From positions 32,001 to 96,000 of IMG/VR virus record IMGVR_UViG_3300037067_005519: a stretch of 64,000 nt of DNA; one strand, given 5' to 3'. The stretch's first letter is position 1. Each line of letters begins with the position of its first letter. Below the pieces are notes generated by a model. That model saw only the letters and a program-made list of their open reading frames with translations. It did no database searches and was not told the DNA's origin. Source of the DNA: a virus. Its lineage: Duplodnaviria > Caudoviricetes. The position numbers were made by a program, and so were the translations under genes. Shown here one piece after another: positions 10,432-54,546 of the stretch.

Positions 10432-10502
10432 TGGCCGATGGTGTAGTGGCAACACAACGGACTTTGGTTCCGTTATCCCAGGTTCGAGTCCTGGTCGGCC
10501 AG
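10432..10502 (+). tRNA. tRNA-Gln(TTG), next to integrase (likely att core)
   Basis: TGGCCGA/TCGGCCA acceptor; ACGGA-CTTTGGT-TCCGT anticodon arm; CCAGG-TTCGAGT-CCTGG T arm. Confidence 0.95.
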
Positions 10503-10779
10503 CTTCGCTTTAGGAGACGACGGTTGTGAGCATGAAAACTCGACGGCTATCGACGGCAGAAACGGGGATTTTAGGAGCGCTTGGGAGCTTGGGTAAGATA
10601 GAGAATATCGCTCTAAGTCCTTGACAAGGCTCGTATTTACGAGGATAATGAGGTTATTCGAGGAAACCAAGAAAAGATTTTGGTTCCTTTTGATTAAAGT
10701 TCCAAACCCTTTGTTGCCGAAGACTTAGGACGACACATGGATTTTGCGACGGTCATTTCGACGGTGATTTTTGCCTGTG

Positions 10780-16751: not shown

Positions 16752-16760
16752 ATACTCAAG

Positions 16761-16849
16761 CGGAAGGGGAGGGAATCGAACTCTCACGCCCAGTGAAGAG
16801 CGCTCGCTTTAGCAAAGCGGCCCGGCCAACCAATATCCGGCTCCCTTCC
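16761..16849 (-). tRNA. tRNA-Ser(GCT)
   Basis: GGAAGGG/CCCTTCC acceptor, TT-GCT-AA loop, long variable arm, GAGAG-TTCGATT-CCCTC. Confidence 0.9.
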
Positions 16850-21880: not shown

Positions 21881-21884
21881 AAAG

Positions 21885-21958
21885 TAGCCCCGGACAGAAT
21901 CGAACTGTCATCTCCGGCCTGAAAAACCGGCGTCCTAAACCGTTAGACAGACGGGGCC
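21885..21958 (-). tRNA. tRNA-Glu(TTC)
   Basis: GGCCCCG/CGGGGCT acceptor; CCGGT-TTTTCAG-GCCGG; GACAG-TTCGATT-CTGTC. Confidence 0.9.
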
Positions 21959-31836: not shown

Positions 31837-32287
31837 GGATCGGGAACCTCCTTCAAGTCCCAGCCTTCGTATTCATAATCACGATGCAACTGCAAGATGG
31901 CTCGAACGCACTGAGCGTTCCCTGAGCGAGCCATTCTCAGGGTGAAGCTATGGGCCTCGTCCTCCATGTAGCATTGGTATTCATCAAGGATCGTGAACAG
32001 CCGCCACATGGCGGCATTGAGTTGTTCTGGCGAATCCGCCAGCCAATACTCGTCTCCTTGCTTGCCGTGGTAGACTAGGATTCGCATAGCATTCCCTTTC
32101 AATAAAAGCGGCTGGCCGGATTCCCCACTCGGCTCCTGGTTTACGTGCCGTCTGGCAGTCGAGCACGGCGCTCGGTTCACGTACCTTCACTTACCTGGAT
32201 GCTGCCACATCCCAGCCGCAGAGCCGACCTGTTGCCAGGCCAGCGATTACCCATCAAGAGATCGCTTTGCGTAGAGGCGTGATGGGT

Positions 32288-44198: not shown

Positions 44199-44213
44199 AC
44201 TTGTTCTCCTAAA

Positions 44214-44286
44214 AGCCAGCGGTAGGACTCGAACCTACAACCCGCTGATTACAGGTCAGCGGCTCTGCCATTTGAGCTACGCTGGC
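44214..44286 (-). tRNA. tRNA-Thr(TGT), C at position 33
   Basis: GCCAGCG/CGCTGGC; GCTGA-CCTGTAA-TCAGC; GTAGG-TTCGAGT-CCTAC. Confidence 0.9.
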
Positions 44287-44294
44287 TTGATGGC

Positions 44295-50667: not shown

Positions 50668-50870
50668 CGGTGTAACTCGATTTCGATATAGGGACTCTGA
50701 TGACGGTCAAACTCACGCCGATGTACCTTATGCGTGATGGAAACGACCTTCAATCTGTACCCGCATTCGGCTGCAACGTAATCACCAACACGCGGGCACG
50801 TCACGAAGTCTTCCGGCCACGTCTTGCAGTGACCTTCGTCGAGATTCGTCCGACAGTGGTAGCTTTTCAC
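50664..50870 (-). CDS. Hypothetical protein
   Basis: AAGGAG RBS before GTG. Confidence 0.6.
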   Translation of the reverse strand: MKSYHCRTNLDEGHCKTWPEDFVTCPRVGDYVAAECGYRLKVVSITHKVHRREFDRHQSPYIEIELHR

Positions 50871-50888
50871 GTTGACTCCTTAGAAAAC

Positions 50889-51022
50889 GCGGGGCTTCGG
50901 TGCATTCCACACGGCGTTCGCATTGCCATTGCGAGTGTTACCGTTACAGCCTGGCTGAGGCAGTCCTAGTCGCCAGCCGTGCAGTTATAGGTTCAGCGCT
51001 TTCGCGCACACCGAAGCCCCGC
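50889..51022 (-). ncRNA. Structured element right after the rsr stop codon
   Basis: 14-bp perfect closing stem GCGGGGCTTCGGTG/CACCGAAGCCCCGC; GCGC-GAAA-GCGC tetraloop on minus strand. Confidence 0.5.
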
Positions 51023-51026
51023 TGAA

Positions 51027-52628
51027 TCATCGAACAAAATCCGCCATCACGGCCGGACAAGAGGCGTCAAACCCCACGACATCCAACATGCCGGCGTCGG
51101 AGGGATCAGCGATCGTGAAAGGTGTGGCCGTCATTCCTACGACGATCAATTTGGCGTCGATTCCCATGATCTGACGGTATTGTTTGAGGGCTTGAGTCGG
51201 GTGAATCTGCCCGGCCCACGTCTCGTTGTCGGTGTAGACCACGAAGGCATCCACTTCAAGACGCTGTTGTGTGGCATACATCATCGGGATGGCACAGTCA
51301 GTACCACCCATCGGTATGCGACTGATCTTCTGGACCAGTGCATCGAGCCGTTCCTTCTTCGAGATGTCAATCGGCACCAAATTGTGGGAGAATCCCATCA
51401 CATGAGTCTGCGGCTCAAGACGATGGGTGACCATCGCCATGCAGGCGGCGGCCTTGGCGGCGCTCAGGTGGGTGTTCGCCAGGAAGGACCATCCCATTGA
51501 GCCGGACACATCCAGGCTCAGCAGATGACGTTTCCCGGTCAACTCGATGGCATCGAAAGCCGAATAGAACGCTTCCTCAAGGGCATCTCTGATCTGGCCG
51601 ACAGGCTGCCAGGTAAGCGATCCCTTGATCCCGTGGCCCTGACTATAAGTTTCCGTCGCAATCAAAACGGAGAGCGGATGGACGCGAGCGCCACGCAGGC
51701 GATCGGGACTGGTCAGCACATTGCAGACCATGTTTGTGGACGCAGCCAACGGTTTCAGCAATCCGATGCTGGTCATCTTCCCCAGGTTGCGGATCAGCGC
51801 CGTGGGCGGCAAGTTGGGCAGGAGGGCTTCCCACACTCTGACGCTACCAAGCAGCGTGGTAGGGATGTGCTCCAAAGTCAGGCCATACTTCTGGATCAAG
51901 TGAGCGGCCCTTTTCTCGTCGCCAGACCCTAGAGAACTGATCTCCTCGAAGCCCTCCACGATCCACAACGGGTGTGTTGGCTCCAGGAAATCCTTGAGCA
52001 CATGCACCTTGCTGACAATCCAGCCATAAAGATCATTGCGATCGCCATCTTTCGTCTTGGGGTGACTCAGCCGCAAAACGTCACGATGGGTGTATCCAGC
52101 GCGATTGCGATACTTCGTCACCTGGTAAGCCAGCTTCTCCACCGGCTTATCGTTGTACCAGGCAGCGACGGCCTCACGCAGACCTCGGCCCCAGCCTCGC
52201 AGTTCCTTGCAGTTGGCAACGAATTGGAACAAGTGGGTCGCCGTGCGGCAGACACGAGGCAGTGCGCCCAAAGCCAGGCGGCGGCCATTGTCGTCACCTT
52301 GGCTTGCAACCAGGGCGAGGGCGAAGATCGCGGCGTCGTTCTTTGGCGCACGGCCAACTTCGCTGATACCAGCGATCGCTTCGACGGTCCTCTCGGCGTC
52401 GATCGTCGCGCAGGTCATCACGACGCCGGCATTGTTGGCCGTCAACTTCTGCTCGCCAACATAGTACGTCCCGCCATCGGAACCAAGGATCAAGAACCGC
52501 TGGAGTCTTCCCCAGGAGTCCAAGACGAAGGTGTATCCTCCGGCGTTGTTCTGCTCTTGCTTCTTGCCGGGAATCGGCCGGCTCTGCGGAGTGACTCGGG
52601 ACGAAACATGCTTAGCGAGGGTTTTCAT
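51027..52628 (-). CDS. rsr: Ro60/TROVE-domain RNA-binding protein (Rsr) with vWA domain
   Basis: NNAGGY..LQRFLILGSDGGTYY; RGWGRGLR; KYRNRAGYTHRDVLRLSHP; ALIRNLG; LDVSGSM; GGTDC; YTDNETW; LDVVGFD. Start reset to MKTLAK with GGAG RBS. Confidence 0.97.
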   Translation of the reverse strand: MKTLAKHVSSRVTPQSRPIPGKKQEQNNAGGYTFVLDSWGRLQRFLILGSDGGTYYVGEQKLTANNAGVVMTCATIDAERTVEAIAGISEVGRAPKNDAAIFALALVASQGDDNGRRLALGALPRVCRTATHLFQFVANCKELRGWGRGLREAVAAWYNDKPVEKLAYQVTKYRNRAGYTHRDVLRLSHPKTKDGDRNDLYGWIVSKVHVLKDFLEPTHPLWIVEGFEEISSLGSGDEKRAAHLIQKYGLTLEHIPTTLLGSVRVWEALLPNLPPTALIRNLGKMTSIGLLKPLAASTNMVCNVLTSPDRLRGARVHPLSVLIATETYSQGHGIKGSLTWQPVGQIRDALEEAFYSAFDAIELTGKRHLLSLDVSGSMGWSFLANTHLSAAKAAACMAMVTHRLEPQTHVMGFSHNLVPIDISKKERLDALVQKISRIPMGGTDCAIPMMYATQQRLEVDAFVVYTDNETWAGQIHPTQALKQYRQIMGIDAKLIVVGMTATPFTIADPSDAGMLDVVGFDASCPAVMADFVR

Positions 52629-52647
52629 GCTACGATCTCCAGAGAGG

Positions 52648-52705
52648 GTTAGGCTAGGAAGTGCCGTGGGTAAGTATCCGATAACCCACGAGCGTCGGCC
52701 CACAC
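52648..52705 (-). ncRNA. Y-RNA-type Ro-binding hairpin F, adjoining the rsr RBS
   Basis: GGGCCGA-CGCTCGTGG-GTTATC...ACCCACGGCACTTCCTAGCCT. Confidence 0.75.
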
Positions 52706-52716
52706 ATCACGCGAGT

Positions 52717-52780
52717 ACGTTGGGCAAGTTGTTGCCGTGGGTCTTCTATGCCTGATAACCCACGAGCTTCGGCCCAATGT
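52717..52780 (-). ncRNA. Minimal Y RNA E
   Basis: TTGGGCCGA-AGCTCGTGG-GTTATC...ACCCACGGCAACAACTTGCCCAA. Confidence 0.85.
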
Positions 52781-52923
52781 TCGGTCTGACTCGCAAACTC
52801 ACCGGCCCAACAGGACGTTCTTCAAGCGCGCCGCTACTTGCATTGCCAAGCGTCTGGCCACGTACTGCGCCTTGAGGGGCGGTTTACAGGTTCCCTTTCG
52901 GTGAGTCTTACGAATCGAATGTT
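52777..52923 (-). ncRNA. Rod-shaped RNA with central bubble (6S-like)
   Basis: GATTCGTAAGACTCACCG/CGGTGAGTTTGCGAGTC closing stem, internal bubble, long terminal stem. Confidence 0.5.
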
Positions 52924-52925
52924 TG

Positions 52926-52990
52926 CCGGGCAAGGTGTGCGATTGGTGTTGGTCAACTAATGGTGAGATAACCAATCAGCTTCGGCCCGG
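52926..52990 (-). ncRNA. Minimal Y RNA D
   Basis: CCGGGCCGA-AGCTGATTG-GTTATC...ACCAATCGCACACCTTGCCCGG. Confidence 0.85.
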
Positions 52991-52991
52991 A

Positions 52992-53123
52992 GGCACGTTG
53001 GCGGGAGTCGAACCCACGACCACAGGTTCCCTTGTTGATAACGCTTCCAGTTCGGCCCATTAGGCAAGAGACTTGAAAGCGGTTCTTTTGACCTGTGCTC
53101 TATCCATCTGAGCTACAACGTGC
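52992..53123 (-). ncRNA. tRNA-bodied Y RNA C (Ro-binding helix inserted in the anticodon loop)
   Basis: GCACGTTG/CAACGTGC acceptor, GCTC/GAGC D arm, CAGGT/ACCTG stem, GTGGG-TTCGACT-CCCGC T arm; insert CGCTTTCAAGTCTCTTGCC-TAAT-GGGCCGAACTGGAAGCGTTATC. Confidence 0.85.
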
Positions 53124-53130
53124 ATAACAG

Positions 53131-53254
53131 CGGACACCGGCAGGACTCGAACCTGCGCCTCTCACTTAACAGGTGATAACGCTGACCCTTCGGCCCTTAC
53201 AAGGCAACGGTGGGTAAGCGGTTTTAGCGCTCTGCCAACTGAGCTACGGCATCC
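53131..53254 (-). ncRNA. tRNA-Asn-bodied Y RNA B (Ro-binding helix inserted between D arm and anticodon arm)
   Basis: GGATGCCG/CGGTGTCC acceptor, D arm, insert, TCAC-CTGTTAA-GTGA anticodon arm, GCAGG-TTCGAGT-CCTGC T arm. Confidence 0.85.
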
Positions 53255-53261
53255 ATACAAG

Positions 53262-53321
53262 GAGGACAAGGTGCGCGGACGGGGTTCATCATTGCAGGAT
53301 AACCCGCCCACATCGGCCCTC
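53262..53321 (-). ncRNA. Minimal Y RNA A (first unit of the array)
   Basis: GAGGGCCGA-TGTGGGCGG-GTTATC...CCGTCCGCGCACCTTGTCCTC. Confidence 0.85.
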
Positions 53322-53355
53322 TACTAAGACGACGTAAATTAAACCGACATTTCCC
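53319..53355 (-). promoter_or_regulatory. Putative ECF-type promoter for the Y RNA array and rsr
   Basis: GGAAAT-N17-CGTCTTAG; near-identical copy at 30284; implied +1 falls at the 5' end of unit A. Confidence 0.65.
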
Positions 53356-54154
53356 CAACTTGACGCCGTTTTTCTCGCTCGATGTCTTGATCGAACTCGT
53401 CATCACTGATATATCCGGCAATCCAGGCACCAAAGCGGGTCGCCAGGCCGCTTAATCCTGCTTGCATCAACTGGCCGATGCGAGTATTGATCTCCTCCTT
53501 GCCCCGTCGATACCGAAACTTGCGGCGGAACCGAGGGTTGACATTGAGCTTCCTCTTGCGACTGCCTCGTGCGGCGATCAGTTCCTCGGCTGCCTGAATC
53601 TGTTCCTCTGGCGGAAGGTTCACGAGCACATCCACGTCAAGAAGAGTCAGCATCTTGGCCGCCACCTTATCGCGGAGTTCCTCGGGAAGCTCCATGATCC
53701 TTAGACGCGAATGGACCCACCGTGTATCACGGCTCATCTCCTTGGCGATCGTCCGCAGAGAACTGCCAGCAGGGAACCTCTTGGCGATCGCTTGAGCTTG
53801 CTCCAAGGGGTTTAGGTCTTCCCGCTCCAAATTCTCCGTTAAGTTAAGAATCTCGGCTGCTCGATCATTGAGGCCCTGACGGATGTTCGCCGGTATATGG
53901 GTCCAATTCAGAAACGTCTTCACGGCAGCCAGCCGACGAAAACCAGCGACCAAACGATACGACTCCTTGAACCCCACCTGGCTGTCTTCACGCTGCTGTA
54001 AGATCACTGGAATCTCAAGGCCAGTCTGAGCAATGTTGTCCGCCAAACCCTTGACCGACTGGAAGGTGAACGCATTCCGGCAGTTGAAATCAGGATCAAC
54101 CCAGATGTCATTCAGCGGAACATCAAACACATCATATCGAGCCAACCGTTCCAT
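53339..54154 (-). CDS. ParB/Srx-family protein
   Basis: LVAGFRRLAA, LTENLEREDLNPLEQA, HTH; start reset to MERLAR (longer ORF runs through tRNA-Asn). Confidence 0.9.
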   Translation of the reverse strand: MERLARYDVFDVPLNDIWVDPDFNCRNAFTFQSVKGLADNIAQTGLEIPVILQQREDSQVGFKESYRLVAGFRRLAAVKTFLNWTHIPANIRQGLNDRAAEILNLTENLEREDLNPLEQAQAIAKRFPAGSSLRTIAKEMSRDTRWVHSRLRIMELPEELRDKVAAKMLTLLDVDVLVNLPPEEQIQAAEELIAARGSRKRKLNVNPRFRRKFRYRRGKEEINTRIGQLMQAGLSGLATRFGAWIAGYISDDEFDQDIEREKRRQVGEMSV

Positions 54155-54240
54155 ACTGACCTCTGGCGACAAAAAAGCGTCAGAAGGGAGGGTGCCTCCA
54201 TCACGGCTACAGCCGCAGACTCCACCCGTTCCGACGCTAG

Positions 54241-54313
54241 CTGCATCGCCTGGACTCGAACCAGGGACATCCGCATTAACAGTGCGGCGCACTACCAACT
54301 GTGCTACGATGCA
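54241..54313 (-). tRNA. tRNA-Asn(GTT)
   Basis: TGCATCG/CGATGCA; CCGCA-CTGTTAA-TGCGG; CCTGG-TTCGAGT-CCAGG. Confidence 0.93.
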
Positions 54314-54324
54314 ATTGTCCATTG

Positions 54325-54546
54325 TCAAAATACTGGGAATACGTTGACGCCAGGCGTACCCATGATACGCTCGACGATAGGCATGAATGATATGTCTCTG
54401 CCAACGAAATCGAATTGAATCATCCCTGCCTCATCTGGATCAGGCATTGGAAAACCTTCAAGCATGGCAAGAAGATCATCGCGGTTCTGCTCCGCAATGT
54501 CTTTGCTCATCGAAAAGGTTAGACGTTTTGGCCCTGGAAGTTCCAT
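54325..54546 (-). CDS. Hypothetical protein
   Basis: GAGG RBS. Confidence 0.55.
   Translation of the reverse strand: MELPGPKRLTFSMSKDIAEQNRDDLLAMLEGFPMPDPDEAGMIQFDFVGRDISFMPIVERIMGTPGVNVFPVF

Follow-up and report, generated by a model that had tools for sequence, protein, structure and literature searches.

The Ro60 locus and its RNA array

The phage genome IMGVR_UViG_3300037067_005519 (Duplodnaviria; Caudoviricetes) is a 148,650 base pair (bp) IMG/VR record with direct terminal repeats. The window analyzed here, a stretch of 64,000 nucleotides (nt), covers positions 32,001 to 96,000 of this record and contains a gene for Ro60 (Rsr), preceded by an array of predicted small RNAs. Two of these, named U1 and U2, are the subject of this work. 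They are shaped like transfer RNAs (tRNAs), carry a predicted Ro-docking hairpin inside, and lie on the strand of Ro60, 365-626 nt upstream of its start codon. From 5' to 3' along the minus strand, the array runs A, U1, U2, D, a spacer element, E and F, and ends at the Ro60 gene (Table 1). A, D, E and F are minimal units matched by the Rfam stem-bulge (Y RNA) model RF01656. The spacers between A and U1, U1 and U2, and U2 and D measure 4, 8 and 2 nt, respectively. A 140-nt spacer element between D and E (52782-52922, minus strand) is without a Ro motif. A consensus scan of positions 50800-54400 found no promoter-like or terminator-like sites between the upstream gene and Ro60. Five tRNA genes are present in the window (10432-10503, 16760-16849, 21884-21958, 44213-44287 and 54240-54313), and a 3' CCA is encoded in none of them. 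One is an ordinary phage tRNA-Asn(GUU), at 54313-54241.

Table 1. Window coordinates of the array, of the genes that border it and of the parts of U1 and U2
Feature	Position	Strand	Remarks
Putative ParB-like open reading frame	ends 53339		Upstream border of the array; identity from reading the translation
Minimal Y RNA A	53259..53325	minus	RF01656, 22.4 bits; 4 nt upstream of U1
U1	53132..53254	minus	123-nt tRNA-shaped Y RNA; model R1, 112.8 bits; unit B of the preliminary description
U1 acceptor stem	53254-53247 with 53139-53132	minus	8 bp, GGAUGCCG/CGGUGUCC
U1 D arm	53244-53229	minus	
U1 Ro-binding hairpin	53175..53220	minus	3' strand CGCUUACCCACCGUUGCC, loop UUGUAA, 5' strand GGGCCGAAGGGUCAGCGUUAUC
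U1 Ro 3' strand	53220-53203	minus	Ends UUGCC
U1 Ro loop	53202-53197	minus	UUGUAA (6 nt)
U1 Ro 5' strand	53196-53175	minus	GGGCCGA...GUUAUC
U1 anticodon-like hairpin	53162..53176	minus	UCAC-CUGUUAA-GUGA; 4-bp stem, 7-nt loop; between Ro helix and T arm
U1 T arm	53156-53140	minus	Loop UUCGAGU; acceptor 3' strand directly abuts T stem
U2	52993..53123	minus	131-nt tRNA-shaped Y RNA; model R1, 104.2 bits; unit C of the preliminary description
U2 acceptor stem	53123-53116 with 53000-52993	minus	8 bp, GCACGUUG/CAACGUGC
U2 D arm	53113-53097	minus	
U2 Ro-binding hairpin	53037..53081	minus	3' strand CGCUUUCAAGUCUCUUGCC, loop UAAU, 5' strand GGGCCGAACUGGAAGCGUUAUC
U2 Ro 3' strand	53081-53063	minus	
U2 Ro loop	53062-53059	minus	UAAU
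U2 Ro 5' strand	53058-53037	minus	
U2 T arm	53017-53001	minus	Preceded by variable loop UGGUC
Minimal Y RNA D	52923..52990	minus	RF01656, 20.1 bits; stem begins 2 nt past the last acceptor pair of U2
Minimal Y RNA E	52717..52781	minus	RF01656, 37 bits (gathering score 38)
Minimal Y RNA F	52646..52706	minus	RF01656, 15 bits; immediately before the Ro60 start codon
Ro60 (Rsr) gene	51027..52628	minus	533 amino acids; TROVE and Ro60 vWA domains; PF25045 9.6e-69, PF05731 1.1e-43

tRNA topology of U1 and U2

In each unit the modules follow in the order acceptor 5' strand, D arm, Ro 3' strand, loop, Ro 5' strand, T arm and acceptor 3' strand. A preliminary description of this DNA had proposed that 8-bp acceptor stems join the 5' and 3' ends of both units, that both have canonical D and T arms, and that the Ro helix is internal, with its strands swapped around a loop of 4-6 nt. 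The acceptor stems were confirmed by sequence, by the minimum-energy fold and by covariation, the D and T arms by sequence and by their pairing in related phage units, and the closed Ro helices by their loops, UUGUAA in U1 and UAAU in U2. Both units also keep the nucleotides of the tRNA elbow, read from the sequence as U8-A9, A14, G15 with C48, the D-loop GG and the T-loop UUCGA; in U1, the UA linker (U8-A9) stands between the acceptor and the D arm. The predicted Ro-docking helix (GGGCCGA.../...CUUGCC) is an internal hairpin at the anticodon end, whereas in other Y RNAs it is formed by both RNA ends. The inner Ro helix of U1 can form eight of nine pairs within the unit compared to five of nine with the strand of U2, and its motif GCCGAAG is an exact fit to the published GNCGAAN0-1G.

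In U1 a 7-nt anticodon-like loop sits on a 4-bp stem that is displaced by the Ro arm. This loop, CUGUUAA, has U at position 33, A at position 37 and the middle triplet GUU (Asn-like). The Rfam tRNA model places the hairpin as the anticodon arm, and a 5-nt variable loop follows it. In U2 the anticodon stem is 5 bp long (CAGGU/ACCUG) and a Ro arm of 56 nt takes the place of the anticodon loop. With introns allowed, ARAGORN called exactly 53254-53130 and 53122-52992, and 300 shuffled versions of the 801-nt region yielded no call; neither U1 nor U2 was detected by default ARAGORN or by Rfam at gathering thresholds. In the minimum-energy structure computed with RNAfold for the 263-nt pair, each unit forms its native acceptor, its T arm and its closed Ro hairpin.

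Covariation was examined in two sets of sequences. The first was a MAFFT alignment of 14 units from seven phage loci, not fitted to any structure, in which U1 and U2 carry the labels WIN_C and WIN_B, respectively. Acceptor pairs 2-8 were formed in 97 of 98 cells, and double changes (2 to 8) were found at six of the seven pairs, 8:143 being an invariant G-C. The D stem was paired at 98%, the T stem at 100% and the terminal Ro helix at 84.5%. None of 500 shuffles attained these pairing values, and in a control in which the partners were slid, pairing fell from 85% to 38-49%. The second set comprised 148 distinct units among 150 aligned from bacteria and viral contigs; all counts over 150 units given below come from the matches listed in IMG/VR and a bacterial genome collection. 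Here the acceptor was 97.6% paired, each pair showing between 6 and 93 double changes, and the D stem, T stem and terminal Ro helix were paired at 99.3%, 99.9% and 92.6%. This second alignment is biased towards structure because it was fitted to the covariance model R1, and the MAFFT alignment serves as the unbiased check. As judged from the two alignments, every helix of the predicted design is supported by covariation.

U1 as a circular permutation of YrlA

YrlA is the tRNA-mimicking bacterial Y RNA, represented in Rfam as RF02553 (Chen et al., 2014, PMC4201824), with a structure reported by Wang et al. (2018, 10.1101/312249). The idea that the two phage units are a circular permutation of YrlA held when they were compared to the YrlA of Microbacterium phage FuzzBuster. 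This RNA, found by blastn, lies just upstream of a Ro-like gene and consists of the same modules in permuted order and with near-identical sequence: a Ro 5' strand ending in GUUAUC, a hairpin with the loop CUGUUAA, a T arm, an acceptor closed by GCAA, a D arm and a Ro 3' strand. When U1 was opened at its Ro loop and rejoined at its acceptor ends, 91 of 113 positions aligned with FuzzBuster YrlA; unpermuted U1 aligned over one half only. The acceptors covary, as described above.

Class tests gave a divided picture. U1 and U2 share with YrlA the adjacency to Ro60, the 5' motif of the Ro helix and a tRNA-like domain with elbow nucleotides. They lack termini in the Ro helix and a loop-closed acceptor, and the YrlA model reached just 28.3 bits, across the U1/U2 junction, compared to a gathering score of 69 bits. 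No canonical YrlA was found in the whole phage genome. With tRNAs the units share the cloverleaf, including ends in the acceptor stem, D arm, variable loop and T arm. Among 18 loci scanned, the Rfam tRNA model RF00005 covered 11 relatives from end to end with scores of 36-50 bits, above its gathering score, and the YrlA model had no match in these same loci.

Related units in viral genomes

A search with the Ro60 protein retrieved 65 IMG/VR loci (cited here by L numbers). The closest phages share the array, with Ro60 identities of 80% (L005), 74% (L007), 70% (L064) and 63% (L003 and L004). In U1 the D stem GCUC/GAGC is replaced in a relative by GUUC/GAAC and the T stem GCAGG/CCUGC by GCGGG/CCCGC, both compensatory. 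The anticodon stem of U2, CAGGU/ACCUG, becomes CAAGU/ACUUG and CGAGU/ACUUG in relatives, and the small hairpin of U1, UCAC/GUGA, becomes UCCG/CGGG in L007, where the counterpart of the anticodon-like loop reads CUGAUAA. Native units, that is, units with the tRNA topology, were also found in the more distant loci L016, L022 (three), L024 (three) and L062. Canonical closed YrlA was found in about 30 of the retrieved loci. The tree of Ro60, whose backbone is without resolution, does not tell one origin of native units from several.

Several RNAs in these loci depart from the common design. The counterpart of U2 in L064 (2750-2837) has its Ro helix deleted but keeps the tRNA body, and its loop of ~20 nt still holds GCGUUAUC. 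In L003 (2328-2447), the array includes a 120-nt tRNA-like RNA with the acceptor GUGUGGG/CCCACAC, a T arm and no recognizable Ro motif. A native-topology unit in L024 (480-586) bears a GACCC-GCAA-GGGUC hairpin in the position of the D arm. A 180-nt stretch in L021 (1676-1855) was given no class. Furthermore, tandem arrays of canonical closed YrlA lie upstream of Ro60 in the GC-rich viral contigs L048, L052, L065, L067, L038 and L039.

Native calls were kept only if they had 7/7 acceptor pairs and a 4-bp D stem, or a covariance-model match. Calls of the motif classifier at 6/7 pairs with weak D arms (L008, L026, L039, L045 and others) were rejected as over-calls. False natives also came from ARAGORN intron-tRNA calls that span two neighboring closed YrlAs (L052, L065, L067) and from R1 matches of 45-56 bits that combine the D arm of one YrlA with the T arm of the next (L048, L028, L039, L038, L069). 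When the array and two further units were compared by blastn with 50,697 GenBank phages, no native unit came to light in any cultured phage; matches in Gordonia were left unassigned. The FuzzBuster match is the closed YrlA discussed above, and the match in Vibrio phage D507 is an ordinary tRNA. This tRNA (L247, 2483-2556) shares 86% identity over ~50 nt with that part of the native L089 unit which comprises hairpin, variable loop and T arm, a likeness that would fit tRNA descent of that half of the unit.

A large family beside Ro60

Wider relatives were sought with a sequence pattern consisting of GTAGCTCA, 45-75 nt, GTTATC, 0-30 nt and GGTTCGA. In IMG/VR it yielded 52 stretches, with about 40 units of many different sequences that have perfect 7/7 native acceptors. 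The bacterial genome collection gave at least 120 stretches, from Cyanobacteriota, Myxococcota, Chloroflexota, Gemmatimonadota, Armatimonadota and other phyla. Culturable carriers include Nostoc punctiforme and further Nostoc strains, Scytonema hofmanni UTEX 2349, Baaleninema simplex PCC 7105 and Polyangium sp. Among the matches listed, R1 identified 164 full-length units in 100 loci, and wherever the fetched 8 kb held a Ro60 gene, the units shared its strand and were usually 75-800 nt away from it. The preliminary description had treated the design as a peculiarity of phages; it proved to be a large family which also stands beside Ro60 in bacteria.

The link to Ro60 was tested on even samples of genomes with and without a TROVE gene. 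Matches to R1 were counted at 60 bits or more and above 100 nt in length, because ordinary tRNAs, too, score 30-59 bits with R1. Among cyanobacteria, such long matches occurred in 14 of 30 genomes with a TROVE gene compared to none of 121 without (Fisher 7e-12); among Myxococcota they occurred in 6 of 8 compared to 0 of 113. Some myxococcal units were found downstream of Ro60 or on another contig. In L154 (4603-4871), two tandem cyanobacterial units share the identical acceptor GUGACAG/CUGUCAC. Arrays of this kind are readable in either topology and may earlier have been called YrlA with a long acceptor stem. Chen et al. noted "relatively few" YrlA RNAs among cyanobacteria as well as delta-proteobacteria, and they discarded matches overlapping tandem tRNA genes (PMC4201824).

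The ends and loops of the family are tRNA-like. Of 150 units, 61 (41%) encode a CCA 0-1 nt past the eighth acceptor pair, whereas ~5 would be expected by chance. These units are spread over six phyla and viral contigs (for example L236:7498-7623 and L175:6838-6963). Units from Nostoc have 8 bp, then A, then CCA. The eighth acceptor pair is formed in 124 of 148 units, and the common U(-1)/A73 combination may account for part of these. In 63 of 150 units a loop of 4 nt caps the Ro helix, usually as GAAA or GCAA (50 of 150), and the Ro motif GNCGAAN0-1G is exact in 54 of 150 units, with GNCGA present in 106. Where a hairpin with a 7-nt loop follows GUUAUC, U33 is found in 77 of 78 cases and a purine at position 37 in all 78, with 30 different middle triplets; by its sequence, this combination of conserved flanks and a variable triplet reads as the signature of an anticodon loop. 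The layout of U2, in which the Ro arm stands on a true 5-bp anticodon stem, was seen in 12 of 150 units, and these stems covary.

Proposed function and origin

Taken together, U1 and U2 are probably Ro60 partner RNAs of the phage, complete tRNAs in outline with an internal Ro-docking hairpin, which correspond to a permuted YrlA and belong to a large phage and bacterial family. The array and the Ro60 gene would be co-transcribed, as are YrlA, YrlB and rsr in Mycobacterium smegmatis. Host RNase P and tRNA 3' enzymes would then release U1 and U2, and because of the short spacers these cuts would also trim A and D, the minimal Y RNAs on either side. Both units may have their 3' ends extended by the CCA enzyme of the host. 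Excision by RNase P and 3' enzymes, punctuation of the array and CCA addition had been put forward in the preliminary description; they gain indirect support from the CCA encoded in 61 of 150 relatives, from M. smegmatis YrlA, which RNase P cuts and which receives CCA (PMC4201824), and from the short spacers. Ro60 would dock on the capped helix, and the tRNA-like body would recruit or block a tRNA-binding factor, as proposed for YrlA.

Several observations weigh against this interpretation. For every member of the family, it draws on sequence. U1 and U2 do not reach the gathering score of RF00005 (29 bits), U1 having a partial match of 26 bits. The Ro motif of U2, GCCGAACUG, has one extra base and fits the published motif imperfectly. 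An eighth acceptor pair could shift or hinder cutting by RNase P. The fold z-scores are modest (-3.2 for U1, -1.5 for U2 and -1.8 for the pair), which is usual for tRNAs. In L007 the two acceptors are nearly identical, so that pairing across units is energetically free (-96.3 vs -96.2 kcal/mol); even so, the Ro helices there remain local hairpins. The promoter result comes from a sigma-70 scan and is weak evidence for co-transcription. A CCA is encoded by neither U1 nor U2, an absence that is uninformative because the five true tRNA genes of the window lack it as well. Finally, the phage genome has no PF01743 CCA-enzyme gene; the tRNAs of this phage depend on the CCA enzyme of the host.

A further reading, which we advance only tentatively and regard as rather doubtful, is that tRNA-like Y RNAs exist chiefly, and perhaps existed first, in the form with tRNA topology, a true tRNA derivative from whose tandem arrays canonical YrlA arose by permutation. 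On this account YrlA would conceivably join one unit's T arm, by way of the spacer, to the D arm of the unit that follows. The units might then, as a speculative extension, have a real CCA end and an anticodon-like loop, be handled as tRNAs, and possibly be charged or recognized by tRNA enzymes. Such a reading would explain why few YrlA RNAs have been found in cyanobacteria and delta-proteobacteria.

Alternative explanations

One alternative holds that U1 and U2 are mainly decoys rather than tethers, whose tRNA body and anticodon-like loop soak up or block tRNA-cutting defense nucleases of the host with Ro60 as a helper. YrlA has been raised before as a competitive inhibitor of an anticodon nuclease (PMC7790460), the signature of the anticodon loop is conserved, and the phage carries tRNAs of its own. 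This role is nevertheless unlikely, as the family is common in bacterial chromosomes and not in phages alone, and units of the U2 type are without the loop.

It is quite unlikely that the units stay uncut and act in cis within a long 5' leader of the Ro60 messenger RNA, for example as feedback sites for Ro60 or as stabilizers. The lack of promoter-like and terminator-like sites between the array and the gene would suit such a leader, as would the last hairpin, which abuts the ribosome-binding site. The myxococcal units downstream of Ro60 or on another contig could not serve in this way, and encoded CCA, 8-bp acceptors and conserved elbow nucleotides would be useless in a leader. Moreover, in M. 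smegmatis the processing of a single precursor shared with rsr yields both YrlA and YrlB (PMC4201824).

A very unlikely alternative is that these are working tRNAs, U1 being a tRNA-Asn(GUU) that tolerates or splices out its Ro-binding arm and is active in translation. Every tRNA part is indeed present in U1, including the 7-nt loop CUGUUAA, and the family keeps U33 and purine 37, often encodes CCA and in part matches the Rfam tRNA model over its full length. The hairpin stem, however, is just 3-4 bp long, and a 45-nt helix separates it from the D stem. The loop is absent from U2 and from ~8% of the family, and the 30 triplets in the place of an anticodon follow no pattern. The insert is not a group I intron, and bacteria are not known to have an enzyme that would remove it. 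In addition, the phage already has a normal tRNA-Asn(GUU), and the strict linkage to the Ro60 gene points to a Ro partner.

Hardly tenable is an ordinary YrlA formed across neighbors from the Ro 5' strand, hairpin and T arm of U1 and the D arm and Ro 3' strand of U2, and just as improbable is the closed acceptor stem that it needs, made of the acceptor 3' strand of U1 and the 5' strand of U2: forcing this stem costs ~24 kcal/mol in the window (-71.9 vs -95.8 kcal/mol). The partial YrlA match (model positions 30-81) does cover the T arm of U1 and the D arm of U2, six of seven cross-unit acceptor pairs are possible (three of them G-U), and in L007 the cross-unit form is iso-energetic, as noted above. 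However, the modules run (D, Ro 3', Ro 5', T) twice, so that a YrlA taken from the middle leaves an outer RNA of native topology. The relatives in L003 (1988-2125) and L016 (2769-2891) are single units with no neighbor to pair with, the flanking A and D are self-contained hairpins, and in both alignments each unit covaries with its own strands. The native topology that had been proposed for the two units withstood this check.

Significance

To our knowledge, all descriptions so far of bacterial Y RNAs that mimic tRNA concern "inside-out" tRNAs, which lack free tRNA ends. Y RNAs with native tRNA topology were not encountered in a full-text literature search, which does not exclude a prior description in other reviews. 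In the widespread right-way-round form the acceptor end is free and a CCA is often encoded; the form also has an anticodon-like loop and a predicted Ro60 handle at the anticodon tip. Among the plausible partners of the tRNA-like part are now RNase P, the CCA enzyme, synthetases, elongation factors and anticodon nucleases. The family supplies candidate Y RNAs for phyla where few had been found, and genome annotation may label some of its genes odd tRNAs or pseudo-tRNAs. Furthermore, tandem units offer a concrete route between the two topologies and bear on the published idea of a dimeric-tRNA origin.

Comparison with known RNAs

U1 and U2 resemble YrlA in their adjacency to Ro60, the Ro 5' strand ending in GUUAUC, the T arm, the D arm, the UA linker and the acceptor-like stem, and they have in common with the actinophage form of YrlA the small hairpin with the loop CUGUUAA. 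YrlA has its RNA ends in the Ro helix and a loop that closes the acceptor; in U1 and U2 the arrangement is reversed, with the ends in the 8-bp acceptor and the closing loop on the Ro helix. The YrlA of M. smegmatis is cut by RNase P, receives CCA in vivo and is bound by Rsr; after cutting, base pairing keeps its two pieces, 82 and 65 nt long, together (PMC4201824). The design of U1 and U2 would give the same kind of open acceptor as a single chain. With minimal Y RNAs and stem-bulge RNAs (RF01656, RF00019) the two units share the bulged helix motif GG(G/U)CCGA ... CUUG(C/A)CC. Those RNAs, to which A, D, E and F belong, have no tRNA body, and their ends lie within the helix.

The layout of U2 is exactly that of the engineered tRNA scaffold of Ponchon and Dardel from 2007, in which a structured RNA reportedly replaces the anticodon loop and tRNA enzymes are said to provide defined, stable ends. 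U2 would be a natural counterpart of this scaffold: the scaffold is man-made, whereas U2 is natural and its insert is a predicted protein-docking helix. Two-piece transfer-messenger RNA genes are a natural circular permutation of a gene for a tRNA-shaped RNA. The Ro60 partners resemble them in this respect, as they do those red algal tRNA genes that are circularly permuted (Soma et al., 2007, as cited in 10.1101/312249). In both of those systems the permuted genes are processed back to the normal product, whereas the two topologies of the Ro60 partners appear to be alternative mature designs.
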